Assembly (NCBI GenBank): GCA_964631365.1
Contig: CAZVZW010000002.1
Span: 9,849 to 54,065 of the forward strand
From: an uncultured Chloroflexota bacterium
GTDB lineage: Bacteria > Chloroflexota > UBA11872 > VXNJ01
DNA length: 44,217 nt
Direction of reading: 5' to 3'
The notes under the pieces were generated by a model. That model was given only the letters and a program-made list of their open reading frames with translations. It did no database searches and was not told the DNA's origin. Positions 12,361-32,632 of the stretch are shown here, in pieces (position 1 is the stretch's first letter; the number at the start of each line of letters is the position of its first letter). The translations under genes were made by a program, and so were the position numbers.

Positions 12361-12437
12361 GGGGTACGGAATTAGAGGTCGCGATGGTGCGATTACGCGG
12401 GATGCCGGTTGAAGTAGAATCTCGCCATGTTTGTCGG

Positions 12438-13415: not shown

Positions 13416-14324
13416 CTAGGCGTCCGCCTGATCCTCGTCCCATTCCGGGAAGAACTGCTTCCAGTTCTCATAGATGATCATGTCCTGCATTTCTTTCGGG
13501 ATCGTCGGCAGGCCGGTCCCCGCCACCGGCGCGTTGATGTTGCGCAGCCCGGTGATCACATTGTCGATAGTTCCCGACGGGAAATCCGACGCCAACAGGA
13601 TCTTGTGCATAATCCCGTACTCCATCGCATTGCTCATCGAGTGCCAGTAGCGCCAGGGGCGGTAGTGGACCGCCGAAATGTCGGTCCAGAGATGCGGCGA
13701 CTTCCGGATCAGCGCGATTAGGTCATCCTCCCAGGGGTGGCCCAGGTGGGCGATGACCATGCGCAGGTCGGGGAATTCCATGCAGATGTCTTCCAGCAGC
13801 AGTGGATTCGCCAGTCGCAGTTTTGACCGCGACGGGAACGTCGTCCCCTGGTGCCACATGACCGGCAGGTTATACTTCTGGCAGATTTCGAATACGCCCC
13901 AATACTGGCGGTCGGTAGGGTCGAAATCCTGGTAGACGGGGCCGAGCTTGAGTCCGCGCAGGCCTAGATCCTGAACGCAGCGCTCAAGTTCCTCCAGGTG
14001 TCCCGGTTGAGTCGGATCCACTGCCGCCCAGCCCACCAGTTTCTCCGGGTGCTCGGCCACGTAGTTGGCGATCACGTCGTTGGGCACCCAGAACCCGGTA
14101 GCCTTCGCCTGCATGCCAAAGACCACCACCCGGTCGGCCGTCGCGCTGACTTCCCAGTGGAGTTCCGGCGGTGAGTCGTAGGAATGCAGGTCCAGGCGCC
14201 CCTTGTAGGCCTGCCCGCCCGAGTACTTCAGCTTCACCAGCTTCGAAGCCAGCGCCTCCTGGGCAAACTCCTCGCTCTGGTGATCCGGATACCAGCCCAC
14301 GTGCGTATGCGCATCGACGATCAT
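13416..14324 (-). CDS. amidohydrolase_2 family metal-dependent hydrolase (TIM barrel; LigI/ACMSD-like)
   Basis: 302 aa. MIVDAHTHVG (HxH), AHLGHPW and LASDFP (Asp) motifs. Clear paralog of 22798-23637. Confidence 0.8.
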   Translation of the reverse strand: MIVDAHTHVGWYPDHQSEEFAQEALASKLVKLKYSGGQAYKGRLDLHSYDSPPELHWEVSATADRVVVFGMQAKATGFWVPNDVIANYVAEHPEKLVGWAAVDPTQPGHLEELERCVQDLGLRGLKLGPVYQDFDPTDRQYWGVFEICQKYNLPVMWHQGTTFPSRSKLRLANPLLLEDICMEFPDLRMVIAHLGHPWEDDLIALIRKSPHLWTDISAVHYRPWRYWHSMSNAMEYGIMHKILLASDFPSGTIDNVITGLRNINAPVAGTGLPTIPKEMQDMIIYENWKQFFPEWDEDQADA

Positions 14325-14358
14325 GTTCGGCCCCTATCGCGGTCTTGAATCCATAACA

Positions 14359-15300
14359 TCAGGAGGTTGGTTCAATTCCCAGTTCCAGCGGCATCTCCAG
14401 TCGCAGTGTCAGCGGCATCCCTCCGAAGGCTTGGCCGACCCGCAGGTCGCCGGCGATCGAAATCAACGCCAGCGCGTCGGCCGGCTCCAGCCCCAGGCAC
14501 GTTTCGATGGCGCGCATCATGTTGTCGACCGCCTCCCGCCGCGCCTCCGCGAAGCCCTCCGCGCAGGTCAGCACCATGATGCGGTCGCCCACCTGCACCC
14601 ACGGCCAGGACAGCGCCAACCCGGCCCGCAACCCGGCCTTCACCGTCACCTCCGCCGGGATCTCTAGCCCTACCCCCGAGAGTTCGCCATCGCCCTGGCA
14701 GGCGTGCACATCGCCGATCGACAGCAACGCCTCCGGTACCGCCACCGGCAGGAAGACCCGGCTACCCCGGCGCACCACCTTGTGGTCAAGGTTCCCGCCG
14801 TGGCGACCCGGTAGTCCGGTGATCACCGCTTCTCCAGCCGGTGCCGTTCCGATACAGCCGATCATCGGCTCCACCGGCAGCGCGATCCCATCGCCGTACT
14901 CGACCATTCCATCGACGACCCGACAGGTCCTGCCCAGTGGCCGCGGCACCCGTCCGACCGGAACCGGGCCCACATGCGCATGCCCGCCGCACCATCCCGG
15001 TGACCCCAGTTCAATCTCCAGCACATCCACCACCAGCGCGTCATCTGGCCGGGCACCGTCGATCGCCACCGGTCCGGTCACCGGATTGCCGGCTCCCGGA
15101 GTCGGTTGCGGCAGTTCGTAGACACTGCCGGTGGGCCGGTCCAGCAGTGCCCCGCTACGGGTGTCGCGGGTCGCGAACACGATCGTCGCCGGTGCGGCCA
15201 CGGCCAGTTGCGGCGCGAGCGCCGCGTCATAGGCAAACGCCGATTGGTCCCGGGCCAGGTGCGGCGGCCCGGTTCCCGCCTCCTCGCCGTCAACCGCCAT
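14359..15300 (-). CDS. acetamidase/formamidase family protein
   Basis: 313 aa starting from MAVDGEEAG. GNPVTGPV, GGNLDHK and CQGDGE blocks are typical of FmdA/AmdA. ATG 15300 lies 1 nt after the ATPase stop (TGAtATG). Confidence 0.8.
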   Translation of the reverse strand: MAVDGEEAGTGPPHLARDQSAFAYDAALAPQLAVAAPATIVFATRDTRSGALLDRPTGSVYELPQPTPGAGNPVTGPVAIDGARPDDALVVDVLEIELGSPGWCGGHAHVGPVPVGRVPRPLGRTCRVVDGMVEYGDGIALPVEPMIGCIGTAPAGEAVITGLPGRHGGNLDHKVVRRGSRVFLPVAVPEALLSIGDVHACQGDGELSGVGLEIPAEVTVKAGLRAGLALSWPWVQVGDRIMVLTCAEGFAEARREAVDNMMRAIETCLGLEPADALALISIAGDLRVGQAFGGMPLTLRLEMPLELGIEPTS

Positions 15301-15301
15301 A

Positions 15302-16411
15302 TCATTCACTCGAAAGATCTTCCTCAATTGCAAATGCGGCATCGATCGGCCAGTACAGCGTTACCGGCTTGCCAGCAGCAAGATCTTCCCGCTGTCCGGA
15401 ACTCACCAGCTGGGCCACTATCTGCCCCACGCTCGTCTCCACCAGGTACTGCGTCGTCGGCCCCAGGTAGATCTGGTTCGCGACCACTCCGTTCAGGCGC
15501 GCGTCGTCATCACGGCTGTCCCCGGCCGCCACAATCTCAATCCGTTCCGGCCGCACCGCCGCATGCACGGTATCGCCGGTGGCCGGTCGCGGGGCGATCT
15601 GCATCGGGATCACATCGCTGGCGTTCGGCCGCATCACCGCCACATCGCCGTCCAGTTCGTCCACCCGGAAATCAAACGCATTCAGCGTCCCCACGAAATC
15701 GGCCACGAACGCCGTCGAAGGTCGTTCGTAGATTTCGCGCGCCGTGCCCACCTGCAGCAGGCGGCCATCGTTCATGATGCCGATGCGATCGGACATCAAC
15801 AACGCCTCTTCCTGGTCGTGGGTGACGTACACGAACGTCGTCCCCAGCTCGTTCTGCATCGACTTGAGTTCGAGCTGCATGTGTTTTCTGAGTTTCACGT
15901 CCAGCGCGCTCAGCGGCTCATCCAGCAGCAGCACCATCGGGCGATTCACCAGTGCCCGCGCCAGGGCCACCCGCTGCTGCTGCCCACCGGAAAGCTGGTC
16001 CGCGCCGCGATTCTCCAGCCCGCCCACTCCGACCGTCTCCAGCATCTCGGAAACCCGCCCGGCGATCTCCTCCTTCGGCGTCTTCCTCACCTTCAACCCG
16101 TAGGCGACGTTGTCAAACACCGACATGTGTGGAAACAGCTCGTAGTTTTGGAAGACCATGTTCACCGGGCGCTTGTTGGGCGCCACATGAGTTACGTCCT
16201 CGCCACGCAAGTGGATGCTGCCCGAGTCCGGATACTCGAATCCCGCCAGCATGCGCAGCGTCGTCGTCTTTCCGCAGCCGCTCGGACCCAGGAGCGAGAA
16301 AAACTCTCCTTCGCGAATCTCCAGCTGCGCGTCAATGACCGCGCGGACGCTTCCAAAGCTCTTCGACACACCCTGCAGGTGGATGGCCACCTCCGTATTG
16401 CTATCGCTCAT
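15302..16411 (-). CDS. ABC transporter ATP-binding protein (PotA-like)
   Basis: Walker A GPSGCGKTT, signature LSGGQQQRVALARAL, Walker B LLLDEPLSALD, and a C-terminal TOBE-like domain. Confidence 0.9.
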   Translation of the reverse strand: MSDSNTEVAIHLQGVSKSFGSVRAVIDAQLEIREGEFFSLLGPSGCGKTTTLRMLAGFEYPDSGSIHLRGEDVTHVAPNKRPVNMVFQNYELFPHMSVFDNVAYGLKVRKTPKEEIAGRVSEMLETVGVGGLENRGADQLSGGQQQRVALARALVNRPMVLLLDEPLSALDVKLRKHMQLELKSMQNELGTTFVYVTHDQEEALLMSDRIGIMNDGRLLQVGTAREIYERPSTAFVADFVGTLNAFDFRVDELDGDVAVMRPNASDVIPMQIAPRPATGDTVHAAVRPERIEIVAAGDSRDDDARLNGVVANQIYLGPTTQYLVETSVGQIVAQLVSSGQREDLAAGKPVTLYWPIDAAFAIEEDLSSE

Positions 16412-17202
16412 TCGACCTCCTGGGTCATCCGGCGGGCAGCGAGAAACGCGAGGCCGGTGGTGGCGACCAGCAGGATCGCGCCGATGGCGTTCAGTGTCGG
16501 GTCGATGCCCTGGTTGATCCGTCCATACATCAGTAGAGGAAGGGTCTTCTCCTGGCCGGCGGTGAAGAAAGCGATTATGAACTCGTCAACCGAGATGGCC
16601 ATCGCCAGCATCATCGCCCCGATCACTGCCGGAAGGACAATCGGCAGCGTAATCGTGTAGAACGCTCTGAACCGGCCGGCCCCCAGATCGTAAGCGGCCT
16701 CCAGCAGGGAGAACCGAAAGCGGTCGAGTGCTGCGCCTATGACCAGGAACACAAATGGCAGAGCAACGACGACGTGACCGGCGATGGTCGCCCAGAGCGA
16801 GAAGCCGACATCAAGAGCGTGATACAAGACGGCCAGGCCGATGGAGTAGAGCAGCAACGGAAATGTTAGCGGCACCAGCGCGATTAGCAGTATGGTGCTC
16901 CGCGCCCGCCGGCCCAGGCGTGTCAGTCCCAGCGCCGCCATCAACCCCAATACGCCCGTCACCAGTCCGGTCGTGACCGCCGCGATCGCCGTTCGAACGA
17001 AGGCTCGCATCACCAGCACATCATTGAATATCTCGTCGTACCAACGCAGCGACAAGCCCTCGAACGGAAGGCTCATACGCGGGACCTGGTGAAACGAGAA
17101 TGTCACCATGATCAGGAGCGGCGTGAACAGGAAGAAGAGGATGATGCCAACATAGATGGCCGCGCCGACCGGTTTCCTACTGTGCCGCAACCGGGTAATC
17201 AT
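16408..17202 (-). CDS. ABC transporter permease (PotC-like)
   Basis: 264 aa, six TM helices, EAA loop (LLEAAYDLGAGRFRAFYTITLP). Overlaps both neighbouring genes by 4 nt. Confidence 0.85.
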   Translation of the reverse strand: MITRLRHSRKPVGAAIYVGIILFFLFTPLLIMVTFSFHQVPRMSLPFEGLSLRWYDEIFNDVLVMRAFVRTAIAAVTTGLVTGVLGLMAALGLTRLGRRARSTILLIALVPLTFPLLLYSIGLAVLYHALDVGFSLWATIAGHVVVALPFVFLVIGAALDRFRFSLLEAAYDLGAGRFRAFYTITLPIVLPAVIGAMMLAMAISVDEFIIAFFTAGQEKTLPLLMYGRINQGIDPTLNAIGAILLVATTGLAFLAARRMTQEVE

Positions 17203-18104
17203 CGCGATATCCAGCGCACGCCGGCCAGCAGCGCCGACAGTATCGCCACTACGACAAACACCAGCGATATTGCCAGCGCCGCACCAAGGGGCCAGTTGAG
17301 CCCGCCCCCGAACTGGAACGCAATCTGGTTACCGACCATCTGGTCTCCGGTTCCACCCACCATCGCCGGGGTCACCCACTCGGCGGCGGCGGCGATGAAA
17401 CTGAATGCGAACGCCGCGCTGACTCCCCGCATCGAAAGTGGCAGCACCACCTTCAACGCGGCGTGAATTTGACTGGAACCCAGATCGCGAGCCGCCTCGA
17501 TCAGGCGCGGAGAAATATTCTGCATGCTCGAGAAGATCGGAAGGACCCCCAGCGGAATGAGAAAATTCACCGATGTGATGACGATGGCGAACGGGCTGTT
17601 GAGAAAGAATCGGATCGGCTCGTCGACGACCCCCATGCCGATCAGGCTCTGGTTCAGGACGCCGGCGCGCCCCAGTATGTTGCGCCAGGCGTAGATCCGC
17701 ACCAGGTAGCCCCCGAACAGGCTGACCAGGACCAAAAAATACAGCAGCTGCCGGCGGCGCGGCATGACGTAGCTGATGATGTACGCGAACGGATAGCTGA
17801 CGAGCACCACGATGACCGAGATGATCGCCGCGATGCGCAGCGTACGGGCAAAAAACGCCCGCAGCGTGGAGCTGGTGATGACTTCCCAGTAGTTCTCGAG
17901 AGTCAGTTCGGGAACGAAATCGAAATTCCGGACCGAATAGAAGCTGAGCCCGATCAGAACCGTGATGGGCGCGACGAAAAAGACAAGAAAATAAAGAGAG
18001 GCGGGCGCCAGTTGGAGCCAGGCTCCAACCCGACGCCGCCTCCCTCGTAAGGGGCTCTTGCCGTCGGCCGCCTTCTCTGTGACGACCGCTCCGGTCGCGT
18101 GCAT
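17199..18104 (-). CDS. ABC transporter permease (PotB-like)
   Basis: 301 aa, six TM helices, EAA loop (LIEAARDLGSSQIHAALKVVLP). Confidence 0.85.
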   Translation of the reverse strand: MHATGAVVTEKAADGKSPLRGRRRRVGAWLQLAPASLYFLVFFVAPITVLIGLSFYSVRNFDFVPELTLENYWEVITSSTLRAFFARTLRIAAIISVIVVLVSYPFAYIISYVMPRRRQLLYFLVLVSLFGGYLVRIYAWRNILGRAGVLNQSLIGMGVVDEPIRFFLNSPFAIVITSVNFLIPLGVLPIFSSMQNISPRLIEAARDLGSSQIHAALKVVLPLSMRGVSAAFAFSFIAAAAEWVTPAMVGGTGDQMVGNQIAFQFGGGLNWPLGAALAISLVFVVVAILSALLAGVRWISR

Positions 18105-18124
18105 TCCGGTCGCCGACTAGGCTG

Positions 18125-19441
18125 CTATCCGGCCTTAATCGCCTGCCAGGCGTCCAGCCAGTCCTGGTATGACGTGTAGCCTTCTCCCGGATCTTCCGGA
18201 GGCGTGGCGTTCTTGAACATCGCTCCGGTGTCGGTGCCCAGGACTATCGAGTAGTCGTAGATCTGGGCACCGAGCTCGATCATGCCGATCGATTTCCGGT
18301 TGACCGTAGCCGAGATCAAATTCGTCGCCACCTGCGCCTGCACGTCCGGCGACAGCATCATGTCGATGTACTCGTACGCACAGTCCACGTCGTCGGCCGT
18401 GACGGGGATGGCCAGCCCATCCCACCAACCGCCGGCCGACTCCTGGAAGAAGCCGAAATCGAGCTTGACGCCCTTCTCGGCGGCCCAGGTGAGCATCGCT
18501 TCCCAACCGCCCATGGCCAGATCGATGTCGCCGGCGACAAGGCGGTCGGTGGCGTCCTGGTAGCCGGTGTTGAACGCCGACGCGTTCCCCACTATCACCG
18601 CGGCCTGCTCAACAATGACGTCCAATTGCTCAGGCGTGATGAGCGGTGCGTCTGGGGTCGCTACGTCGATGTACCCATCGGCGATACCAAGAAGGAAGTA
18701 GACCAGCGCGGGCGCGTCGAACAACACGAACCGGTCCTTCCATTCGGGTTCCATCATGTCGAGTATCGATGTTGGAGGGCTTTCAACCCGGGCCGGGTGG
18801 TAGACGTAGGGCCCGTCGCCCCAGGCGATCGGCGCGCCGTAAACGGTGCCGTCCGGGCCACGCAGGGATGAATTCTCCCGCAGGCCGGGCACCATGTCGT
18901 TCCAGTTCGACAGCCGGCTCGTGTCCAGGGGCTGGAGGATCCCGGACGCGATCATGCGCTGGGACCAGTGATACGGGATCGTCACCAGGTCGTATACATT
19001 GCCGACCTTGATCGAGGCGATCAATTCTGACCAGTTACCCGGCCAGGAGCCTTCCAGCGCCGTGTTCAGACCCTCACGCCAGGCGGCCAGTTCGACGTCA
19101 CCTTCTTCACCCGCAAGACCGATGAAGCTCAGCGTCGCGTCCTGGCAGGCCGACACCGTCGGCGGCGGAGTCACCAGTTTCTCTACCTCGACGATCTTCT
19201 CGACCTCCACCACCTTCTCCACCTCGACCACCGTCTCGACCTCAACGGTCTTCGTCGCACCGGGAACCTCCACCTCGACCACCCTGGTCTCGCCGGGAAC
19301 CTCCACCTCTTTTATGACCTCAACCGGAACTTCTTTGATAACTTCGCGAATCTCCGTGTCGCCACAAGCCGCCAGCGCCGCCATTCCTACCGTGCCGACG
19401 CCGATGCCTCGCAACAGCCCTCGTCTGGTCAGGTGCTCCAC
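18125..19441 (-). CDS. TAT-signal lipoprotein, extracellular solute-binding protein (family 1, PotD/PotF-like)
   Basis: GTG start. Signal peptide MEHLTRRGLLRGIGVGTVGMAALAAC carries a twin-Arg and the lipobox LAAC. An EV-rich linker follows, then a periplasmic binding fold. Confidence 0.85.
   Translation of the reverse strand: MEHLTRRGLLRGIGVGTVGMAALAACGDTEIREVIKEVPVEVIKEVEVPGETRVVEVEVPGATKTVEVETVVEVEKVVEVEKIVEVEKLVTPPPTVSACQDATLSFIGLAGEEGDVELAAWREGLNTALEGSWPGNWSELIASIKVGNVYDLVTIPYHWSQRMIASGILQPLDTSRLSNWNDMVPGLRENSSLRGPDGTVYGAPIAWGDGPYVYHPARVESPPTSILDMMEPEWKDRFVLFDAPALVYFLLGIADGYIDVATPDAPLITPEQLDVIVEQAAVIVGNASAFNTGYQDATDRLVAGDIDLAMGGWEAMLTWAAEKGVKLDFGFFQESAGGWWDGLAIPVTADDVDCAYEYIDMMLSPDVQAQVATNLISATVNRKSIGMIELGAQIYDYSIVLGTDTGAMFKNATPPEDPGEGYTSYQDWLDAWQAIKAG
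19154..19360 (-). repeat. low-complexity Glu/Val/Lys-rich tether encoded by degenerate short tandem units
   Basis: Residues 28-96 of the SBP read DTEIREVIKEVPVEVIKEVEVPGETRVVEVEVPGATKTVEVETVVEVEKVVEVEKIVEVEKLVTPPPTV. The DNA shows repeated ctcgacctccaccac-type units. Confidence 0.7.
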
Positions 19442-19543: not shown

Positions 19544-19562
19544 CGTTGCGCAGAACGCAACG
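19544..19562. promoter_or_regulatory. candidate IclR operator, perfect palindrome CGTTGCG-N5-CGCAACG (site 1)
   Basis: cgttgcgcagaacgcaacg lies in the divergent region, 103 nt upstream of the SBP start and 129 nt upstream of iclR. Extra half-sites occur nearby: gcaacg near 19477 and cgttgc near 19612. Confidence 0.45.
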
Positions 19563-19690
19563 CCGGTGCACTCTGATGCTATTCTGGCCCCCCCGGATAG
19601 CCTCAGTCAAACCGTTGCATCACTTGGGTTAGGCTGTCCCGCCCGCCCGCACATCCACTAGGGGGCATCTATTATGCCCAGCAGGAGCCA

Positions 19691-20515
19691 GTGCCCGCCG
19701 GACCGACTGGTGCCGATTTCGGCAAAGGAACACAGAATTTGGCGAATCTACAATCTGCCGCCCGGGTAGTCCATGCCTTGGAGTTCCTTGCCCGGGTCGA
19801 GGGCGCCGGCCTTGACGAGGTCGCCACCGAGCTCGGCGTCCACAAATCAAACGCCCTCCGTCTCCTCGCCACCCTGCGCGATTTCGACTGGGTTACCCTC
19901 GACCGCACCCGGTCCCGGTACTCCCTCGGCCCCCGGCTCGTCACCATTGGGCAGGCCGCCACCTCCGGGCAGCAGTTCGAACAGGCGATTGGCCTCGCCC
20001 GGGAGGTGCGCGACCTCACCGGTGAAACCGCTCATATCTGCGTGCCCTACGGCGACCGCATGCTGGTCGTCGGCCGGGTCGACAGCACCACGCCCCTAAA
20101 AGTAACCACCGACGTCGGTTGGGAAGACCACCTGCACGCCTCCGCCGTCGGCAAAGTCTTCCTTGCCACCCTGTCCGACGGCGAACTCGAACTCGTGCTC
20201 AACCGGCTCGACCTGGCGAAGCTCACCCCTTCCAGCATCGATTCCCGGGACGCCCTCCTCGAAGACATCCGGCTGATCCGCGAGCGCGGCTACGCCATCA
20301 ACCAGGAAGAGCAACAATCGGGAACCACCGCCATCGGCGTCGCCCTCGGATTCGGAGTCGGACCGCTCTCCATCATCTCGCTATCCGCCAGCGGCCCCGC
20401 CAATCGTTTCTCCCCCGCCGTAATGGAGGGTTTCGCCCCGGCGATTCTGGAGATCGTCCGCCCGTATCAGGCGCTGGACGGCCTGCCTGGGTTGGCCGAC
20501 GGCGAAAACGCGTAA
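19691..20515 (+). CDS. IclR family transcriptional regulator
   Basis: 274 aa. N-terminal winged HTH (AARVVHALEFLARVEGAGLDEVATELGVHKSNALRLLATL) and a C-terminal IclR effector domain. The 3' end overlaps the convergent enolase gene by 49 nt. Confidence 0.85.
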   Translation: MPAGPTGADFGKGTQNLANLQSAARVVHALEFLARVEGAGLDEVATELGVHKSNALRLLATLRDFDWVTLDRTRSRYSLGPRLVTIGQAATSGQQFEQAIGLAREVRDLTGETAHICVPYGDRMLVVGRVDSTTPLKVTTDVGWEDHLHASAVGKVFLATLSDGELELVLNRLDLAKLTPSSIDSRDALLEDIRLIRERGYAINQEEQQSGTTAIGVALGFGVGPLSIISLSASGPANRFSPAVMEGFAPAILEIVRPYQALDGLPGLADGENA

Positions 20516-21612
20516 CGCGCCAGCGCCTCCCGATCCAGCTCGATCCCCAGCCCCGGTCCGGCCGGCAATCTCGCCCCGGTCCAACCGACGAAGCTTGCAT
20601 CGGCGACCAGCGTCGACTCGAAATACAGCGGTCCGATCAAATCCGCCGGCATCGCCGTGCTCAGGCGCGGGCACACCGCCGCGACCTGGGCCAGCGCCGC
20701 CGCCCCGATCCCCAGCTCCAGGTTCGACCCGAACGTCACTTCGAGCCCCAAGTCCAGCGCCGTCCGCGCCATCCGCAAGCAGCGCCGCAGCCCGCCGCAC
20801 TTCCCCGGATAGACGCTAACGGTATCGAACGACCCCGCCCGCCAGGCCGCCGCCACATCCTCCAGCGTCCAGATCGACTCATCCCCCACGATCGCCGCCG
20901 CCGTCATCTCGCGCAGTCCCGCCGATTCCGAATCCGCTCCCCTGGGCAATGGTTGTTCAAAGGCCGCCACCCCCAGCTTCGTCAGGGCCGCCACCCCGAC
21001 CTTCGCGTCCTCCTCGCGCCAGCCCTCGTTGGCATCCACCGTCAACTGCATCGCCTCGCCAACCTCGCGTCGAACGGCTGCGACCCGTTCAATGTCCTCG
21101 CCCACATCCAGGCCGACCTTCACCTTCAGTGTCGACGGGCCCAGGCCCGCGGCGTCGCGCGCCATTTCCATCACCAAATCCGTCGCCCGCGCCGGCAGCA
21201 CCAGTTTCGTTGGAATTCGCTCCCGGACCGGCCCGCCCAGCAGATCGGCCACCGAAGCCCCCAGCCGTTTCCCGGTCAGGTCCAGGCACGCCATCTCGAT
21301 CGCCGCTCGCAGAAACGGCCGGCCCTCTAGCAATGGGTCGATCGCGGCTGCCAGCCGGTTCCAGTTCGCCGGGTCCGTCCCCACCAACCGGCTGCCAACG
21401 TCGCCCTCCAGCAACTCCGTCGAGCCGGCCGCGTCCTCACCGCTCCAGGTCGGCGAGCAGGTCACCTCCGCCAGCCCCACCGCCCCATTGTCCGTGCCCA
21501 ACTCAAGGATCACATACTCACTGGCGGTGACCTCGCCGTGGGCCGTCCGCGGAAGGAACCGGGTCAGCCGCGGCACCCGCACCGGCGTCGCCCGGACGGT
21601 GGTGATCTTCAT
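20467..21612 (-). CDS. enolase-superfamily enzyme (mandelate racemase/muconate lactonizing family), paralog 2
   Basis: 381 aa starting from MKITTVRATPV. Motifs: KxK (LKVKVG), metal ligands VDANEGW / FEQP / GDES, then SVYPGKCGG. The upstream 71 codons of the track ORF are not coding. Confidence 0.85.
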   Translation of the reverse strand: MKITTVRATPVRVPRLTRFLPRTAHGEVTASEYVILELGTDNGAVGLAEVTCSPTWSGEDAAGSTELLEGDVGSRLVGTDPANWNRLAAAIDPLLEGRPFLRAAIEMACLDLTGKRLGASVADLLGGPVRERIPTKLVLPARATDLVMEMARDAAGLGPSTLKVKVGLDVGEDIERVAAVRREVGEAMQLTVDANEGWREEDAKVGVAALTKLGVAAFEQPLPRGADSESAGLREMTAAAIVGDESIWTLEDVAAAWRAGSFDTVSVYPGKCGGLRRCLRMARTALDLGLEVTFGSNLELGIGAAALAQVAAVCPRLSTAMPADLIGPLYFESTLVADASFVGWTGARLPAGPGLGIELDREALARYAFSPSANPGRPSSA

Positions 21613-21661
21613 CGGCTTTGCCCCGCCTTCAGCCGGCCGTTCGGAGCCGGCCGCCGTGCCG

Positions 21662-22783
21662 TCATTGCCCGTCGCGATGCCGTTCGATCGCCGCCTGGTC
21701 CAGCTCCACGCCGAGCCCCGGTCCGGTGGTCGGCCCCACATAGCCCGCCTCCACCGGCAACTCCCCCTTGACCACGTCGTCCAGGTAGTAGAACCGCGAG
21801 ATGATGTCGCAGGGCACGATGTCATCCGCCAGGCCCGGCACCGACAGCGCCAGCTGGATGTGGGCCGACGTCGCGATGCCGAGTTCCAGGTTGCTGCCGA
21901 TCATCCAGCCCAGTCCTGCCGCGTGCGCCATCGAGGCGATCGCCCGCGCTGGCGCCAGTCCCCCCGACATGCCCACGTAGACCGACAGGATGTCCGCCGC
22001 CCCGGCGCGAATGATCGCCGCCGCCTCGGCCGGCGTCCCGTTGGACTCATCCGCTACCAGGGGCACCGGCAGTCCCCGGCGCAGCTCCGCCATCCCTTCC
22101 AGGTCCGCCGCCGTCAGTGGCTGCTCCAGGAACGCCATCCCCAGGTCCAGCAGCGGCGGGATCGCCCGGTTCACCTGGTCCCGCGTCCACCCGCCATTCG
22201 CATCTACCCCCACCGTCACCTCGTCACCCACCGCCTCCCGCACCGTTGCGAACCGCGCCAGGTCCGCCTCGTGCCCGCCCACCGCCAGCTTCACCTTCAT
22301 CGTCGTGAACCCCTGGTCCTTCGCCCATCCCGCCGCCGTAGCCGACCGTTCCAGCGTCGCCCCGGTCACCGAGAATTTCGTCCGCGCGCGGGGCCGCACC
22401 GGCCCGCCGAACAGTTCGTGCACCGGCATGTCGTGCACCTTGCCCACCAGGTCCCACAGGGCCATCTCCACCCCGGCCTTGGTGAAGTAGTGTCCCGCCA
22501 CCGCCCCGTTCAGCACCTCCGACACCGCCAGGACCCTGGTCGGGTCCAGCCCCGTCAACGCCGGCGCTAGGTAGCTATCCACGATGTGCGCCGCCGTACT
22601 CCCGTCCTCGCCGCTCCACAGATGCGTCCCCGACACCTCCCCCAACCCCACCAGGCCCTCATCCGTGTTCACCACCACGATCCCAAACGGCGACCTCGCG
22701 TGGGTACCGCGGGCGCTGGTAATCACTCGCGCCGGGTCCATCGGGACTATCACCGGGATGACTTCGATGGAGGTGATCTTCAT
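21662..22783 (-). CDS. enolase-superfamily enzyme (mandelate racemase/muconate lactonizing family), paralog 1
   Basis: 373 aa starting from MKITSIEVIPV, with AAAGGAAAG as RBS. Motifs: KxK (MKVKLA), VDANGGW / LEQP / ADES, then SVYVGMSGG. Confidence 0.85.
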   Translation of the reverse strand: MKITSIEVIPVIVPMDPARVITSARGTHARSPFGIVVVNTDEGLVGLGEVSGTHLWSGEDGSTAAHIVDSYLAPALTGLDPTRVLAVSEVLNGAVAGHYFTKAGVEMALWDLVGKVHDMPVHELFGGPVRPRARTKFSVTGATLERSATAAGWAKDQGFTTMKVKLAVGGHEADLARFATVREAVGDEVTVGVDANGGWTRDQVNRAIPPLLDLGMAFLEQPLTAADLEGMAELRRGLPVPLVADESNGTPAEAAAIIRAGAADILSVYVGMSGGLAPARAIASMAHAAGLGWMIGSNLELGIATSAHIQLALSVPGLADDIVPCDIISRFYYLDDVVKGELPVEAGYVGPTTGPGLGVELDQAAIERHRDGQ

Positions 22784-22797
22784 GGCTTTCCTTTGCC

Positions 22798-23637
22798 TCA
22801 ATCCAGGCCCAGCAGGGTCACGCTGTCACGTTCGATGATTCCCTCGATTACCTCCGCCGGAATCGGCGGCATCCCCGTTCCCGCGACGACCGCGTTGACA
22901 TTGCGCAGCGCGTCGATACTCTGTTCGAGGGTTGAAAACGGGTAGTCCGAGCCCAGCAAGATTTTGTCCGTCACCCGGTATTCGACTGCCGCGTTCAGCG
23001 CCAGGTAGAACTGCATCGGCCGCGTGTGCAGCGCCGATACGTCGCTGTACATCCGCGGATGCTTGCGGATGACCGCCATGTTCTCCTCGCACCAGGGGTG
23101 TCCCAGGTGCGCCAGGCAGATCGCCAGCCCCGGAAACGCGATGCCCACCTCGTCCATCAGCCAGGGTCGCGCGTGGCGCAGTGGCGACTTCTGCACAAAC
23201 GTTGTCGCCATGTGCGTCAGCACCGGTATCCCCAGCCGTTCGGCCTCCCCGTACAGCGCCATCGCCCCCGGCCCCACCGGATTCGCATCCTGGTAGATCG
23301 GCGCTAGCTTCAGGCCGCGCAGCGGCAGCGTCTCCACCGCATGCCGGAGCCGCTCCACGCCATCCGCACGATTCGGATCCACGCTTGCGAACCCGATCAG
23401 CTTCTCCGGGTGCTGGGCGACGTAGTTGGCCACGTATTCATTGGGCACCTCGAAACCGGCCGCCGGCGCGTCGAACGCCACCACGATCGCCCGTTCCGCC
23501 CCCCGGACCGCCTCCCAGTGATCCTCCAGCGTGCGCCCTTCCCAGCGCACCTCGCCCCAGGCCTTCGCCAGGTCTGCCGCGAACTGGCCCGAGTAGTGCT
23601 CCGCCGCGCCCACGTGGGTGTGGCAATCAATCGGCAT
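22798..23637 (-). CDS. amidohydrolase_2 family metal-dependent hydrolase, paralog of 13416-14324
   Basis: 279 aa starting from MPIDCHTHVG, with GGAGG as RBS. AHLGHPW and LGSDYP motifs. Collinear similarity to the other copy (for example YVAQHPEKLIGFASVDP against YVAEHPEKLVGWAAVDP). Confidence 0.8.
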   Translation of the reverse strand: MPIDCHTHVGAAEHYSGQFAADLAKAWGEVRWEGRTLEDHWEAVRGAERAIVVAFDAPAAGFEVPNEYVANYVAQHPEKLIGFASVDPNRADGVERLRHAVETLPLRGLKLAPIYQDANPVGPGAMALYGEAERLGIPVLTHMATTFVQKSPLRHARPWLMDEVGIAFPGLAICLAHLGHPWCEENMAVIRKHPRMYSDVSALHTRPMQFYLALNAAVEYRVTDKILLGSDYPFSTLEQSIDALRNVNAVVAGTGMPPIPAEVIEGIIERDSVTLLGLD

Positions 23638-23667
23638 CGGCAACCTCCTGCCGGCGTGCAATCGCGG

Positions 23668-24837
23668 TTAGCTCATCCCCGCCGCCAGCGCCAAGCTGAT
23701 CCGCGCCGATGCCACCAGTTCCTCGATCTCCACAAACTGATCCGGCGCGTCGTGCCACTGGCCAATGCCGTAGACCACCGTCTCCAGCCCCGCTCGCGCA
23801 AGGTCTGCCGCGTCCGTGATGAACGCCTGCCCCGGGAGCTCGTTGGTCACCCGCGGCGCGCAGCCCAGCGCCTCCGTGTGCGCCTCCGAAATCGAATCGA
23901 TCAGCTTGCCCTCAGTCGCGCCCATGAACGGATTCTGCACCGCCGTGATCATGACCCGGCGCTCGATGTTGTCCGGGCACACCCGGTCCACCGTCTCCTT
24001 GATGCGGGCCTTCACGTTGTAGCGATCCATGCCCGGTACGTACCGCAGGTCGCCGCGCACGAACGCCTCATCGGCCACCGATCCGGGCGCGAATCCGCCC
24101 TGTATTTGGCCTTTCACGAGACGCGGCAAGTCCGGCAGCCGGTCGGACGGTTCGTAATCGAACGTCTCGACATTTATCGCGTTGTATACATCCACCGCCG
24201 CCGCCAGCGCGTCCGCCGCCAGTTCCTGCCGGGATATGTGGGCTGTCTCGCCGCGCAGGCGTACTTCCCACTTCAGCGCCCCACCGTTGCCGGTGTGAAT
24301 CGCCATCCCCGACGGCTCCCCACAGATCGCATAGCCCTCGTTCGGACCCTCACTCGCCAGTACGTACTTCGTCCCCAACCCGATCGTGTCGTGATGTATC
24401 ACCGCCTGCAAGATCAGATCCCCCGGCAGCGGCCCCATCGTCGGCGCCACCTCCACCGCCGCCACCATCGCCGCCACCGCCCCCAGCATGTCGGTGATGC
24501 CGAATCCGTACACCCGCTCGTTTTCGATCCAGGGGTCCAGCGGGTCGTGGCTCCACGGCCCCGGGTGAGCGTGGGCGTCCATGTGGCCGTTCAGAACCAG
24601 CGGCGGTCGCTCGCCGGTCCCTTTCACCCGGGCGATTACGTTCGGCCGTCCCGGCACCAGCTCCATCAGGTGCAACTCGATCCCGGGTCGATCCAACGCC
24701 TCCGCCACGATCTCCGCCACCGCCCCTTCTTTGCCGTCCGGCGTCGGCGCCCCACAGATCATCCGCGTTAGTTCCACCACTCGATCTTCCTTCACCGCCT
24801 CCGTCGCCGCCTTCAGCGCTCCCGCTACGTCACTCAT
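23668..24837 (-). CDS. M20 family metallo-amidohydrolase (ArgE/DapE/aminoacylase-like)
   Basis: 389 aa starting from MSDVAGALK; the track start 24867 is also possible. LVLNGHMDAH, GFGITDMLG and CGEPS motifs plus a central dimerisation domain. Confidence 0.8.
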   Translation of the reverse strand: MSDVAGALKAATEAVKEDRVVELTRMICGAPTPDGKEGAVAEIVAEALDRPGIELHLMELVPGRPNVIARVKGTGERPPLVLNGHMDAHAHPGPWSHDPLDPWIENERVYGFGITDMLGAVAAMVAAVEVAPTMGPLPGDLILQAVIHHDTIGLGTKYVLASEGPNEGYAICGEPSGMAIHTGNGGALKWEVRLRGETAHISRQELAADALAAAVDVYNAINVETFDYEPSDRLPDLPRLVKGQIQGGFAPGSVADEAFVRGDLRYVPGMDRYNVKARIKETVDRVCPDNIERRVMITAVQNPFMGATEGKLIDSISEAHTEALGCAPRVTNELPGQAFITDAADLARAGLETVVYGIGQWHDAPDQFVEIEELVASARISLALAAGMS

Positions 24838-25090: not shown

Positions 25091-25109
25091 CGTTGCGCCC
25101 TTCGCAACT
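25091..25109. promoter_or_regulatory. candidate IclR operator, CGTTGCG-N5-CGCAACt (site 2)
   Basis: cgttgcgcccttcgcaact lies in the divergent region between the M20 operon (start 24837) and the Gfo/Idh/MocA operon (start 25239). Confidence 0.4.
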
Positions 25110-25238
25110 ATGATGCGCAGACGAGGGCAATTCTCCCGACCCGGCAAGGCGATGTCAAACCACCCCGGCACCCGCCCGGCAGCCCACGGGCCGCCCCCGC
25201 AGCAGCGTGAAACGGCCGGGGGCAGGGGGCCGCTCACC

Positions 25239-26264
25239 GTGAACCCGGTACGCTGCGCCGTCGTCGGGCTCGGCATGATCGGCAGTGTCCACGCCGCGGT
25301 GCTCCATGAGCATCCCCTCGCCGACCTGGTGGCCGCCTGCGACCTGGACCCTGCCACCCGCTCCGCCGTTCCGCCGGGTGTGCCCCTCATAGATAGTCCC
25401 GAGCGCCTCTTCGACGAGTACAAACTCGAAGCCGTCTTCATCTGCACCCCGCAGGCCCATCACCGAGAGGTCGTCGAAGTCGCCCTGCGCCGTGGGCTCG
25501 CGGTGTTCTGCGAAAAACCGATAGCCCACGACCTGGAAGACGCCGACGCCATCATCGCCGCCGCCGATCGCGGCCCCGGCCGCCTGGTGATCGGCCACAC
25601 CCTGCGCTTCGATCCCGCCTACGTCCAACTTGCGGCCGCCATCGCCGCCGGCGACATCGGCGAGGTCGTTTCCATCGCCGCCCGCCGCAACGTCCCTTCC
25701 TTCGAAGGTCGCGTCATCGCCGGCCGCACCACCCTGGCGACCGAAATTGCCGTACACGATCTCGATGTCGCCCGTTGGATAGCCGGCGACATCGTCCGCG
25801 TCCACGCTGAGCAATCCCGGCGCGGCGTCGTCGGCGAGGGCTTCGCCGACGCCATCGTAGCCACCATCCGCTTCGCCGGTGGCGCGGTCGGCGTCATGGA
25901 TTTCAACTGGACCATGAGCGCCGAAAGCGGCGTCAGTTCGGACCATCGATTCGCCGCCTTCGGTTCCGACGGCTCCGCCTACGCCGATTCACGTACCCCG
26001 TCGGTCGCAATCTTCAGCACCACCGCCACCTCGTTCATCCGCACCGATTGGCTCGCCGAGCTATACGGCGTCTACGCTGGAGTCCTGCGCACCGAGGACG
26101 AATACGTCTTGCGAACCATCCGCGAAAATCTCGAATGGCCCATCAGCCTCGGCGACGCGCGCGCCGCGCTCGACGCCGCGCTCGCCCTCGATTGTTCCCT
26201 CGCCACCGGCGAGCCTGTCACCGTCAGCACTCCGCCCGATCCCGTCCCGGCCGTTGCCAACTAG
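25239..26264 (+). CDS. Gfo/Idh/MocA family NAD(P)-dependent oxidoreductase, paralog 1
   Basis: The GTG start was chosen because VNPVRCAVVGLGMIGSVHAAVL aligns with the N-terminus of paralog 2 (MEPVNVALFGIGMIGREHARIL). Rossmann GxGxxG and the FCEKPIA (EKP) motif are present. Confidence 0.8.
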   Translation: MNPVRCAVVGLGMIGSVHAAVLHEHPLADLVAACDLDPATRSAVPPGVPLIDSPERLFDEYKLEAVFICTPQAHHREVVEVALRRGLAVFCEKPIAHDLEDADAIIAAADRGPGRLVIGHTLRFDPAYVQLAAAIAAGDIGEVVSIAARRNVPSFEGRVIAGRTTLATEIAVHDLDVARWIAGDIVRVHAEQSRRGVVGEGFADAIVATIRFAGGAVGVMDFNWTMSAESGVSSDHRFAAFGSDGSAYADSRTPSVAIFSTTATSFIRTDWLAELYGVYAGVLRTEDEYVLRTIRENLEWPISLGDARAALDAALALDCSLATGEPVTVSTPPDPVPAVAN

Positions 26265-26302
26265 AGGAGAGAACACTGGAATATTCCGTTCAAGTTCTGA
26301 GC

Positions 26303-27061
26303 ATGGGCCAGTCGCTGATCGCCGGGCCCGAAGTCTTCTGGATGAGTCACTGGGATGAAGAGCTGCCGCTGGCCTTCAACGTCACCCTCATCCGCGGTCA
26401 CGGCATCACCGCCCTGGTCAACACCTCCCCACCCGACACCACCGAATACGTTGAAGAGCACTTCCCGGCCATGCGCTACCTGCACGACGCCCCGAAGGGC
26501 GACCTCGTCCGCGAAGACGGCCACTACATTGAAGCCGCCCTCGCCGCCGCGGATCTCACTCCCGACGACATCACGCACGTCTTCCTCACCCCGCTTGAGA
26601 TGTACACCACCGGCACGCTGGACAAGTTCCGCCGCGCCCAGATCGGGATCGCCAGGCGCGGCTGGATCCACTTCCACGTCACCCACGACCATCCCCACGA
26701 TTCCCGCTGGCGGTCCTTCACCCCGGAGACAATGGTCGACTTGATCACCGACTCCTGGGATCGCGTCCGCCTCCTCGAAGACGAAGACCAGATCGCGCCC
26801 GGGCTGCGCACCTGGTGGTCTGGCGCCCACCACCGCGAGTCAATGGTGGTCGAAGTCGATACCGCCGCCGGCGTCGTCGCCATCTCCGACTCGTTCTTCT
26901 ACTACGAAAACGTCGAAGACGGTCAGATGCTGGGCCTTTGCGAGAACATGTACGAGGCTCTCGAGGCCAACCGCCGCGTCCTGGCCACCGCCGACCACAT
27001 CGTTCCCGTCCACGACCCCAAAGTGTTCGATCGCTACCCCGGCGGCATAATCGCCGATTGA
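26303..27061 (+). CDS. metallo-beta-lactamase-fold, AHL-lactonase-like protein with a degenerate HxHxDH motif
   Basis: Collinear by eye with AiiA-type lactonases, but the HxHxDH position reads TPLEMYTTG. GAHH, SDS and VHD elements are retained. The start is uncertain: ATG 26303, or CTG 26276 directly behind GAGGAG, which would add LEYSVQVLS. Confidence 0.6.
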   Translation: MGQSLIAGPEVFWMSHWDEELPLAFNVTLIRGHGITALVNTSPPDTTEYVEEHFPAMRYLHDAPKGDLVREDGHYIEAALAAADLTPDDITHVFLTPLEMYTTGTLDKFRRAQIGIARRGWIHFHVTHDHPHDSRWRSFTPETMVDLITDSWDRVRLLEDEDQIAPGLRTWWSGAHHRESMVVEVDTAAGVVAISDSFFYYENVEDGQMLGLCENMYEALEANRRVLATADHIVPVHDPKVFDRYPGGIIAD

Positions 27062-27080
27062 CCCCAACCACGGAGAGACC

Positions 27081-28091
27081 ATGGAACCTGTAAACGTCGC
27101 CCTCTTCGGCATCGGCATGATCGGGCGCGAGCATGCCCGCATCCTCGACGCCAATCCCGGCGCCAACCTGCTCGCCGTCTGCGACACCGATCCCGACGCC
27201 GCCCAGTATGTGCCCGACGGCGTCGAGTTCACCACCGATCTCGACGCCGCTCTGGGCACTCCGGGTCTCGAAGCCGTCTGGGTCTGCACTCCCCAGGCAT
27301 TCCACCTGCCGGTGGTCGAAGCCGCCCTGGACCGTGGCCTGGCGGTGTTTTGCGAGAAGCCCATCGCCGCCTCCATCGAGGACGCCAACGCCATGCTGGT
27401 CGCCGCCGAGCGCAATCCCGGCCCCCTGGCCATCGGCCACACGTTGCGCTTCGACCCCAACTACATCGCCGTGCACGATGCCGTCGCCGCCGGCGAACTC
27501 GGCGAGATCGTCCACCTCGCCGCGCGTTGGAACGCTCCCGATTACGAAGGCCGCATCATCTCCGGCCGCACCACCGTCCCGGCCGAGATGGCCATCCACG
27601 ACCTTGACATAATGCGCTGGCTCGTCGGCCCTATCGAACGCATCTACGCCGAGGCGGCCGGCATGGAAGTCGTCGGGCCCGGCCCCGACGCCGCCGTAGG
27701 GACCGTGCGCTTCGCCTCCGGCGCGGTCGGAGCCCTCGATCACAACTGGATCCTGCCCGGTGAAAGCGGAGTCAAATCGGACCATCGCCTGGCGGTTTTC
27801 GGCTCGCGCGGCTCGGCCTACGTCGAGTCCCGCGAGACCCCGGCGGTCATCTTTACCGAAGATTCCACCCGCTTCCTTAACACCACCTACTATTCGTACC
27901 CCAACGGCATCCCTTTCGGTGCCCTGCCCACCGCGGACGCCTACCTCCTGGCCATGGTCCGCGACGGCCGCCCGTGGCCCATCAGCCTCGAAGACGCCCG
28001 CGCCGCCCTGGTCGCGGCGACCGCCATGGAGAAGTCCATCGAAACCGGCCGCCCCGTGTTGCTCGCCGACGTCGAAGCCGGCCGTGTTTGA
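27081..28091 (+). CDS. Gfo/Idh/MocA family NAD(P)-dependent oxidoreductase, paralog 2
   Basis: 336 aa. FGIGMIGREH, FCEKPIA and GHTLRFDP blocks. Long collinear identity with 25239-26264. Confidence 0.85.
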   Translation: MEPVNVALFGIGMIGREHARILDANPGANLLAVCDTDPDAAQYVPDGVEFTTDLDAALGTPGLEAVWVCTPQAFHLPVVEAALDRGLAVFCEKPIAASIEDANAMLVAAERNPGPLAIGHTLRFDPNYIAVHDAVAAGELGEIVHLAARWNAPDYEGRIISGRTTVPAEMAIHDLDIMRWLVGPIERIYAEAAGMEVVGPGPDAAVGTVRFASGAVGALDHNWILPGESGVKSDHRLAVFGSRGSAYVESRETPAVIFTEDSTRFLNTTYYSYPNGIPFGALPTADAYLLAMVRDGRPWPISLEDARAALVAATAMEKSIETGRPVLLADVEAGRV

Positions 28092-28190
28092 GTCCCGGGC
28101 ACGAGAACAAGTGATCCAACTACCTTCCCCGACCGCGCCACCATCCTCCCCGTTCGCTTCACCCGACCCGCAATCAACAAGGAAATTTCA

Positions 28191-29240
28191 ATGAGCCATG
28201 TGATGACCGTTCGCGGCCCCATCGACCCATCGGAAGTCGGTCCCACGCTCACCCACGAGCACATCTTCATGGACGGCCGTCCGGGCTGGGACCCGTCCGA
28301 GTTGCACGATCGCTCCATCGGCGAGCGCCCCCTCTCACCCCGCACCGCTGGCATCGCGCGCTGGAACGGCTCCGGCATTCGCGACAACCTGGCACTGCTC
28401 CATGACGACGACTACGACCTGATGCGTGGCGAAGTCGCCGAATTCGTGGAAGCCACCGACGGCAAGGGAGTCCTCGTCGAACTCACCATCGTCGGGATAA
28501 ATCCCCAGCCTGCCGCCCTCCTCAAGCTGTCCAACAACCTCGACCTGCACATCGTCGAAGGTTGCGGCTACTACGTCCACTCCACCCATCCTGAGTCGCT
28601 TGAAGACCAGAGCGTCGACGAGATCGCCGACGAGCTCCACAGGATCGTCACCGAAGGGTTCGACGGCACCCCGGTTCGTCCCGGGCTCATCGGCGAGATC
28701 GGCACCTCCGAGGAGCTTCAACCTTGCGAAGAGCGCGTCCTGCAGGCCTCGGCCCGGGTCGCCATCAAGACTGGGCTCCCGATCAACATCCACGCCCATC
28801 CGCCGAAGCTCCCGGTACTGATGCGCATCCTCGACATCCTCGAGGAAGCCGGCCACGATCTCCGCCGCACCTCGATCTCCCACCTCGACGAAATCTGGGA
28901 CCTCGACTATCACATTCAAGTCCTGAGGCGCGGCGTCATCACCGGCTTCGACAGCTTCGGCCAGGACGGTTACTTCAGCCCCACCTGGAAGTCGATGAGC
29001 GACCACACCAAGATGACCACCATGGTCGCCCTGATCGATCACGGTTTCGAAGACCAGTTGGTCATGTCACAGGACATCTGCAAGAAGCACTACCTGCTCG
29101 AATTCGGCGGCCTCGGGTACGACCACGTTGTCCGCCGCATCGTCCCGCGCCTGAAGAGTGTCTTCGGCGTCGACGACGCGACTATCGACAAGCTACTCGT
29201 GCAGACTCCGCGGCGTTTCCTGACCATCGACAGGGACTAG
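28191..29240 (+). CDS. phosphotriesterase-family (Php/PTER-like) hydrolase, copy 1
   Basis: 349 aa. MSHVMTVRGPI, THEHI (HxH), GEIGTSE, NIHAH, SHLDE and SQD ligand pattern. Confidence 0.9.
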   Translation: MSHVMTVRGPIDPSEVGPTLTHEHIFMDGRPGWDPSELHDRSIGERPLSPRTAGIARWNGSGIRDNLALLHDDDYDLMRGEVAEFVEATDGKGVLVELTIVGINPQPAALLKLSNNLDLHIVEGCGYYVHSTHPESLEDQSVDEIADELHRIVTEGFDGTPVRPGLIGEIGTSEELQPCEERVLQASARVAIKTGLPINIHAHPPKLPVLMRILDILEEAGHDLRRTSISHLDEIWDLDYHIQVLRRGVITGFDSFGQDGYFSPTWKSMSDHTKMTTMVALIDHGFEDQLVMSQDICKKHYLLEFGGLGYDHVVRRIVPRLKSVFGVDDATIDKLLVQTPRRFLTIDRD

Positions 29241-29306: not shown

Positions 29307-30353
29307 CTAGGCCGGGTCCGGGCGCGTCAGCAGCCGGCGCGGAGTCTCCAGCAGTGCCTTGTCGATCGCCGTCTGCGACAGCCCCATGTGCTCCCGCATG
29401 CGCGGGATCACCCGCTCCAGCACGTGGTCATAGCCCATCCCCGCGTAGCGACGCAGGTAGTGCTTCTTGCCCATGTCCTGCGCCACCACCAACTGATCCT
29501 CAAATCCGCGCTCGGCCAGAGACACCATCGTCTGCGCCTTTTCCTGGTCGCTCAGCGATTTCCACGTCGGCGTGAAATAGCCGTCCTGGCCAAAGCTGTC
29601 GAACCCGGTCACCACGCCCTTTTCCAGCACCTGGGTGTGGTAGTCGAGGTCCATGATCTCATCCAGGTGCGACAGGTAGATCCGGTCGGCCGGCAGTCCC
29701 TCTTCCAGAAGTAGATCGATGATGCGTAGTGTCACCGCCAGCTTTGGCGGATGGCAGTGCACGTTCACTGCCGTCCCCGTCGCCAGCCCTGCCCGCGCCG
29801 ATGCCCGCAGCACCCGTTCCTCACAATCCTGCAGCGTTTCCGACGTCCCGATCTCGCCGAGAATTCCGGGCCGCACATCGGTGTCCAGTAAGCCCTCGTT
29901 CAGTTGCGTCAGGAAGTACTCGGTCATCCGCTCCACGGAGGCGTCCTCCAGCCACTCCGGGTGACAATCGTGCACGTAGAAGCCCAGCCCCGCCACCACG
30001 TTCAGGTCCAGTTCCTCGGACAGTTGGCGCATCTTCGCCGGCGCCGGTGAGATACCCTCGATCGTCAACTCCACTAGGCAATTGCCGCCCGCCTCCTTAA
30101 AATGCCCCACCTCTTCTAGGATGAGCAGGTAGTCCCTGTCCGGCGACGCCACCAGGTCGTCCAGGTAGGCCCCGTTGTCCCAGCGCGCCAGCGCCGCTAG
30201 GCTTGCGTCGATCGGCTGCCGGCCGTCCTCCGGATCGGCCAGTCCCGACGGGTCCCAGAACTGACTGGCATCGAAGAATATGTGCTCGTGCATCATCGTC
30301 GGACCCAGGTCCCCGGGTCGGATTGGCCCCCGTACCGTCATGATATGACTCAT
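29307..30353 (-). CDS. phosphotriesterase-family (Php/PTER-like) hydrolase, copy 2
   Basis: 348 aa. MSHIMTVRGPI, MHEHI, GEIGTSE, NVHCH, SHLDE and AQD. Confidence 0.9.
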   Translation of the reverse strand: MSHIMTVRGPIRPGDLGPTMMHEHIFFDASQFWDPSGLADPEDGRQPIDASLAALARWDNGAYLDDLVASPDRDYLLILEEVGHFKEAGGNCLVELTIEGISPAPAKMRQLSEELDLNVVAGLGFYVHDCHPEWLEDASVERMTEYFLTQLNEGLLDTDVRPGILGEIGTSETLQDCEERVLRASARAGLATGTAVNVHCHPPKLAVTLRIIDLLLEEGLPADRIYLSHLDEIMDLDYHTQVLEKGVVTGFDSFGQDGYFTPTWKSLSDQEKAQTMVSLAERGFEDQLVVAQDMGKKHYLRRYAGMGYDHVLERVIPRMREHMGLSQTAIDKALLETPRRLLTRPDPA

Positions 30354-30393
30354 CGCAGTCCCCTTCGTTTGCTACTTCCCGAAACAATCCCGG

Positions 30394-31443: not shown

Positions 31444-31467
31444 CTCAAAACCCCCTTCGTTGGACAG

Positions 31468-32614: not shown

Positions 32615-32632
32615 TGTTGCGCAGACCGCAAT
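32615..32632. promoter_or_regulatory. candidate IclR operator, tGTTGCG-N5-CGCAAt (site 3)
   Basis: tgttgcgcagaccgcaat lies 80 nt upstream of PTE copy 4 (start 32535) and 188 nt upstream of the creatininase-family gene (start 32820). Confidence 0.35.

Follow-up and report, generated by a model that had tools for sequence, protein, structure and literature searches.

A three-box palindromic motif as the predicted operator of an adjacent IclR-family regulator in a gene block of an uncultured Chloroflexota bacterium

We identified three copies of a palindromic motif, GTTGCG-N5-CGCAA, in a 44,217-nucleotide stretch of DNA (hereafter "the window") from an uncultured Chloroflexota bacterium. Judged from the arrangement of sites, genes and promoter-like sequences, we consider it likely that all three serve as operators for the neighbouring IclR-family regulator, which would act as an effector-released repressor of three minus-strand operons. 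The motif is unique to this gene cluster and confined to intergenic DNA, it co-occurs with orthologues of the IclR protein, and the geometry of promoter and operator is conserved.

The exact pattern was detected at positions 19545-19560, 25092-25107 and 32616-32631, and the window holds no other copy. Each falls in intergenic DNA, and a stretch of 13 kb holds all three. Their letters and places are as first described: site 1 is a perfect 7+7 palindrome (cgttgcg-cagaa-cgcaacg, 19544-19562), and sites 2 and 3 read cgttgcg-ccctt-cgcaact and tgttgcg-cagac-cgcaat. The original prediction further held that the motif is far beyond chance in the window and noted no full copy in coding sequence on reading, and both points were borne out. 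The three sites give five strand-matches, compared with a mean of 0.03 in 100 dinucleotide-preserving shuffles of the window (0 of 100 reached five), and the exact search returned intergenic sites only, with none of the coding copies that would be scattered about in the case of a generic repeat. Allowing one mismatch added a single copy in the window, at 22245, inside an enolase gene. We also searched the whole metagenome-assembled genome of this Chloroflexota bacterium (2.05 Mb in 247 contigs, 66% G+C, 78% complete), whose AlaRS shares 93% identity with that of 'Chloroflexota bacterium Arabian11_MAG_64'; the exact pattern was found only at the three window sites, and a reversed-pattern control had no match. 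The three sites are thus the only exact copies under an exhaustive search of window and genome. High G+C content, and relatives with 0-9 chance copies per genome, might suggest that the motif recurs by chance or belongs to a generic dispersed repeat, but the expectation of 0.03 against three sites, the lack of copies elsewhere in the genome and the retention of the motif in foreign loci exclude this explanation.

Each site lies between divergently transcribed genes. Site 1 separates the SBP/ABC genes from iclR, site 2 separates the M20/amidohydrolase/enolase genes from a group running from Gfo to PTE, and site 3 separates three PTE genes from a creatininase-family gene, which is on the plus strand to the right of the tandem PTE genes. 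These gene identities had been proposed from the sequence and were upheld by Pfam. The block is flanked by housekeeping genes, with alaS, ruvX, yceG and secDF to the left and murT and gatD to the right. At its right edge, a UxuA/xylose-isomerase-like TIM-barrel gene (33613-34563, minus strand) converges on the creatininase gene; we found no operator upstream of this gene. The features of the block are listed in Table 1.

For four genes the start of the longest ORF is probably wrong, and the ranges concerned are 19691-19739, 24836-24867, 25074-25240 and 32631-32758. The true start of iclR is likely the TTG at 19739 (M-A-N-L-Q-S-A...) rather than the GTG at 19691, and that of the M20 gene is likely the ATG at 24836, which follows an AGGAG ribosome-binding site. 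The Gfo gene probably starts at the GTG at 25240 and the creatininase gene at about the ATG at 32758; orthologue alignment, ribosome-binding sites and Pfam domain offsets were considered for the four genes together. The iclR start was revised from the alignment of orthologues, and that of M20 from comparison with a same-genus genome. With the revised start codons, the sites are 79-255 nt from the divergent starts, in agreement with the 80-260 nt given originally.

Table 1. Predicted operators, promoter elements, target operons and regulator gene of the block, in window coordinates.
Feature	Coordinates	Strand	Description
Operator O1 (predicted)	19545..19570	-	GTTGCG-cagaa-CGCAAC-gccgg-TGCA; upstream of the SBP/ABC operon; PWM score 26.2
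Operator O2 (predicted)	25092..25117	-	GTTGCG-ccctt-CGCAAC-tatga-TGCG; upstream of the M20/amidohydrolase_2/enolase x2 operon; PWM score 29.4, best of the genome
Operator O3 (predicted)	32616..32641	-	GTTGCG-cagac-CGCAAT-ggcga-TGCG; upstream of the three tandem PTE genes; PWM score 29.1
Predicted promoter of the SBP/ABC/FmdA/amidohydrolase operon	19581..19610	-	TTGACT (19610-19605), 18 nt, CAGAAT (19586-19581); consensus scan
Predicted promoter of the M20 operon	25130..25158	-	TTGACA (25158-25153), 17 nt, GAGAAT (25135-25130); 10/12 consensus matches
Perfect TATAAT -10 hexamer	32644..32649	-	2 nt before the third box of O3
Target operon 1 (predicted)	13416..19441	-	SBP, two permeases, ABC ATPase, FmdA/AmdA-like amidase, amidohydrolase_2; Pfam
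Target operon 2 (predicted)	20467..24836	-	M20 peptidase, amidohydrolase_2, two enolase-superfamily genes
Target operon 3 (predicted)	29307..32535	-	Three tandem PTE-family hydrolase genes
Possible further target (by inference only)	25240..29240	+	Gfo/Idh/MocA, unknown, Gfo, PTE operon
IclR-family regulator gene, candidate binder	19739..20515	+	Pfam HTH_IclR and IclR_C

The candidate binder has the make-up of the IclR family, namely an N-terminal winged helix-turn-helix (PF09339, E = 9.5e-8) and a C-terminal IclR_C domain (PF01614, E = 6.2e-27) in a protein of about 250 amino acids, and it matches the solved IclR structures 5tjj, 1mkm and 2g7u. Its orthologues, of about 245-257 amino acids, start where LQSA aligns, and they share a recognition helix (GVHKSNALRLL) that hardly varies. 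In a protein search, the orthologue group extends to 43% identity, after which there is a sharp drop to 33%. A search of genome contigs with the IclR protein gave no related locus. None of the 40 nearest relatives has an orthologue at E<=1e-30, and a sample of 400 genomes of the phylum contained one, in the genome G077; thus, the cluster is accessory.

The full motif proved longer than first noted, GTTGCG-N5-CGCAAY-N5-TGCR, and comprises three boxes. We aligned 32 sites (three from the window and 29 foreign) and found the third box, TGCG, exactly 5 nt past the palindrome, with T in 29, G in 27, C in 29 and G in 23 of them. In the window, it is on the high-coordinate side at all three sites (19567-19570, 25114-25117 and 32638-32641) and reads TGCA at site 1, which on the minus strand is TGCA-N5-GTTGCG-N5-CGCAAC. 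The O1 block is identical in L007, the nearest orthologous locus. A fourth box that would complete a second palindrome is not conserved overall among the 32 aligned sites, and a tetramer footprint is an assumption for this reason; complete second palindromes with a period of 19-20 bp occur in L010, L014 and L018. Additional TTGCG/CGCAA half-sites were also considered in the three intergenic regions. Six occur beyond the palindromes in 922 bp, against a background of 2.2 per kb; the pair at 19473-19491 is not conserved in L007, and we took these half-sites as chance.

We compared the window with ten independent loci that encode IclR orthologues (L007, L008, L010 and L012-L018) and with the locus of the GTDB genome G077. 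In our own alignment, the IclR proteins of the ten loci are 46-76% identical to the window protein. These loci share a neighbourhood of SBP/ABC/FmdA/amidohydrolase genes, IclR, enolase/M20/creatininase genes and Gfo/RraA/aldehyde dehydrogenase genes, often with PTE. Footprinting in relatives had been suggested as a check on the motif, and the operator is indeed kept at equivalent intergenic regions in nine of the ten syntenic loci, as well as in G077. With up to one mismatch, 17 of the 18 copies in the ten loci fall in the 7.8% of the DNA that is intergenic (binomial p ~3e-18), and the 18th lies 39 nt inside the start of an RraA gene, where the start was probably mis-called. Sites precede SBP or FmdA genes in L007, L008, L010, L012, L014, L016 and L018, PTE genes in L008 (1171) and L016 (10335), and operons equivalent to the Gfo operon (Gfo/unk261/RraA) in L008, L012, L014, L016 and L017. 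A position weight matrix (PWM) built from the 29 foreign sites only ranked the three window sites first to third genome-wide (scores in Table 1), with the next hit at 21.6.

In L013 we found no motif, either at a low threshold or by eye. In this locus (JGI 3300037755 contig, 1-12500; 73% G+C), the ABC, M20 and creatininase genes are split or shortened and an SBP gene is missing; either the cluster is decaying there or the assembly is rich in errors. In L008, L010, L015 and L016, the operator is also found ahead of genes for DMFA2_C (dimethylformamidase-like), aldehyde dehydrogenase, RraA-like and YjgF/RidA proteins, and ahead of those for an EamA exporter, SBP_bac_3 and SBP_bac_5 transporters and an acetyltransferase. 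By its predicted sites, the regulon is a conserved core with a variable periphery. The next-best PWM hit of the genome is a palindrome at C107:2557-2582 (L019; ATTGCA-gagaa-TGCAAC, score 21.6). Its half-site is related to that of the window sites but not the same, a third box is lacking, and we did not count it as a regulon member. It lies in a 74-nt gap between two ORFs of ~500 amino acids whose N-termini appear sulfatase-like by eye, and it may be the site of another regulator.

The same comparison bears on which protein binds the motif. Further regulators may be unassembled in a genome that is 78% complete, and another transcription factor, encoded elsewhere, might bind the sites, with the proximity of iclR being coincidental. 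We regard this as very unlikely, given that the IclR orthologue is the sole regulator common to the syntenic loci, that the presence of the motif tracks that of IclR across loci of 58-72% GC, and that both the motif type and the three-box layout are typical of IclR proteins. Moreover, an actinobacterial IclR group with the same HKS helix signature is predicted, in the supplement of PMC8222616, to bind GTTGCG-N5-CGCAAC. In 40 relatives without the IclR gene, counts of the pattern equal those of the reversed-pattern control, at 0-9 copies per genome. The adjacent IclR protein, named in the original prediction as the obvious candidate, therefore keeps that place as the predicted binder.

A same-genus genome, G004, contains the M20/amidohydrolase/enolase operon with ~90% DNA identity on its contig C29 (L021:1-2855), which begins inside O2. 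All 29 aligned O2 bases are identical in G004, and the leader after the operator has diverged. The presence of this operon indicates that the cluster exists in the genus, though the iclR search gave no match in this genome (a fragmented assembly, 89% complete). Transcription from the predicted promoter would give the M20 operon a leader of ~287 nt (24837-25123, minus strand). Most of it has diverged between the window and G004; a G+C-rich stem-loop at 24888-24912 (GGGTGACGCGACCCTCGCGTCATCC) and the block around the start codon are kept.

The promoters reported for the window are sigma-70 consensus matches only. At all three window sites the third box faces such a sigma-70-like promoter on the minus strand. 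The predicted -10 of the SBP operon ends 10 nt before the third box of O1, and this promoter is conserved in L007; when the SBP-iclR spacers of the two loci are compared, the conserved island consists of the -35, the -10, the third box and the palindrome. The predicted -10 of the M20 operon ends 12 nt before the third box of O2, and its TTGAC is 41 nt before that box. For O3, a good -35 was sought to accompany the TATAAT hexamer and was not found. Across loci, TTGAC occurs 37-41 nt before the third box at 11 of 34 sites, compared with 1 of 34 on the opposite (control) side, and both G077 sites have a perfect TATAAT 8 nt before the third box. Because the third boxes lie 2-12 nt past the -10 hexamers, the operators cover approximately +1 to +26. 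In other loci, as few as 13-25 nt separate the end of the palindrome from the start codon that it faces, too short a distance for a promoter to lie between the two. This order of -35, -10 and operator over ~+1 to +26 ahead of the three minus-strand operons points to a repressor. Gene direction lends the orientation rule little weight, since the majority of sites are located between divergent genes and suit either orientation; in tandem-gene regions, four sites agree with the rule and one disagrees (L016:10335).

IclR-family members can also activate, and the sites might be IclR operators with an activating or dual role, for example activating iclR, the Gfo operon and the creatininase gene from upstream. 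All three window sites are in divergent regions, 125-176 nt upstream of plus-strand starts, and the window holds no other site that could serve the plus-strand operons. Among IclR-family activators there are some, PcaU for one, that require a third box (PMC8222616). At O2 we noted by eye a candidate plus-strand promoter that is below the scan threshold, TTGCGC (25086-25091), 17 nt, TATGAT (25109-25114), in which the palindrome forms the spacer. O2 is also 255 nt from the M20 start and closer to the Gfo start, which we counted against a firm assignment between the two divergent operons. Plus-strand promoters for iclR and creatininase that overlap O1 and O3 were looked for, and none was convincing. 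Activation fits poorly with sites only 13-25 nt from the faced start codon in other loci, and a consensus -35 and -10 directly upstream of the third box fits occlusion of the promoter, not activation; we therefore consider an activating or dual role unlikely. The promoter layout supports assigning the predicted operators primarily to the three minus-strand operons as repressor sites, with iclR, the Gfo operon and the creatininase gene as candidates for control from the same operators.

The repressor layout has the sites transcribed (+1 to +26), and GUUGCG-N5-CGCAAC is foldable, with box 2 able to pair alternatively with the third box. The palindrome might thus act as RNA rather than as protein-binding DNA, by forming a 6-bp hairpin in the 5′ leaders with an effect on stability or attenuation. 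We measured paired cells, compensatory changes and a covariation score over 34 sites and found no covariation: 125-238 of 500 column shuffles reached the observed values, in a test that is biased by the sites having been picked by sequence pattern. There were 23 unpaired cells against three compensated ones, indicating that base identity is kept rather than pairing, and the stems would be just 4-6 bp. We regard a function as RNA as very unlikely.

We return to the adjacent IclR protein as a repressor. Along the direction of transcription, each predicted operator would present three boxes of alternating direction, (C/T)GCA-N5-GTTGCG-N5-CGCAAC. This corresponds to a palindrome of 17 bp followed, at a distance of 20 bp, by the first half of another, an arrangement compatible with an IclR dimer-of-dimers bound to one helical face. 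With no effector present, the regulator would stay bound and keep RNA polymerase from the SBP/ABC-amidase, M20/amidohydrolase/enolase and tandem PTE promoters, and the substrate of the pathway or an intermediate would release the regulator. Binding by IclR, the repressor mode, the tetramer and the effector are what we infer from the motif and its setting.

The individual elements of this arrangement have precedents. Suvorova and Gelfand (2021, Front Microbiol 12:675815; PMC8222616) describe the IclR motif class GTNCG-N5-6-CGNAC, in which TphR is included, and report three-box sites of alternating direction in 32 orthologous groups. Binding can depend on the extra box, PcaU being the example (Popp et al. 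2002, cited in PMC8222616), and tandem IclR sites 18-22 bp apart fit tetramers (PMC8222616). The half-site, the spacing and the three-box/tandem layout of the predicted operators match these catalogued motif types (PMC8222616). An IclR-type operator has inverted (G/T)TnCG half-sites with a 5-6 bp spacer, and TTGCG-N5-CGCAA at the three window and 31 foreign sites is of this form. An alternating third box, or a second palindrome 18-22 bp away, is present as well, and the sites are upstream of regulator-linked genes and conserved in orthologous loci.

Among the closest known systems is the predicted regulog of the actinobacterial IclR group ROP_14880 / RHA1_ro01811 (also Mflv_3080, MMAR_4420 and Svir_18740), in the PMC8222616 supplement. 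The sites given there have the same half-site and spacing (e.g., cGTTGCGttcTaCGCAACA and cGTcGCGCATaGCGCAACA) and include tandem sites, spaced by ~19 bp, upstream of divergent genes. The window IclR and this group have the recognition helix signature GVHKS(T/N) in common (GVHKST in the latter), and the DNA-binding regions are 34% identical over 61 amino acids, a figure for the HTH stretch only. The exact helix string HKSNA of the window protein is absent from the part of the supplement that was searched. Unlike the sites given for this group, those of the window have a 20 bp period and a degenerate fourth box, which leaves three boxes per site. Host phylum (here Chloroflexota) and regulon content are likewise not those of the actinobacterial group.

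TphR activates the catabolism of aromatic acids in a proteobacterium. As in the window, an IclR-family regulator adjoins the genes concerned, in this case its own catabolic operon. Its operator in Comamonas sp. E6 (terephthalate genes), TTTTTGCGCATAGCGCAAAAA (Table 1 of PMC8222616), has the same core, TTGCG-N5-CGCAA, with the same spacing; unlike for the window sites, no third box is given in PMC8222616. The three-repeat operators of PcaU and PobR (Acinetobacter) and HmgR combine a palindrome with a required external half-site repeat (PMC8222616), similar to the three-box logic of the window, but they have a GTNCG-type box and are upstream of or within the promoter, not at +1 to +26, and PcaU is both activator and repressor. 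TtgV of Pseudomonas putida, an IclR repressor that binds as a tetramer to a promoter-overlapping site of ~40 bp, provides a model for a dimer-of-dimers (PMC8222616), although its operator sequence is unrelated, as is its effector class (aromatic solvents). The structures matched by the window IclR at E-values up to 1e-10 did not include TtgV.

Judged by sequence, the motifs are most likely binding sites of a known kind, an example that is well supported but in no way unusual. What is known of IclR proteins is unchanged by them, because the motif class, the three-box/tandem layout and the repressor geometry were already established. A further reading, which we put forward only tentatively and think somewhat less probable than its opposite, is that operator and regulator define a conserved, previously undescribed regulon, in uncultured Chloroflexota and other lineages (58-72% GC), for breaking down a nitrogen-containing marine compound. 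Its members would be the ABC importer, FmdA-like and M20 amidases, creatininase-like, amidohydrolase_2 and enolase-superfamily proteins, Gfo/RraA/aldehyde-dehydrogenase proteins and PTER-like hydrolases. If this is true, the IclR-operator pair would be a ready biosensor for identifying the compound and the orphan PTER-like enzymes.

For the bacterium itself, the analysis brings the hydrolase, dehydratase and oxidoreductase genes of a little-understood 21-kb block together in one predicted regulon that recurs in unrelated metagenomic lineages. To this regulon we assign a predicted repressor, a three-box operator of 26 bp and three predicted promoter-operator units with their positions. The predicted regulator and its operators would offer a handle on the substrate of the pathway and on the four PTER-like paralogues.
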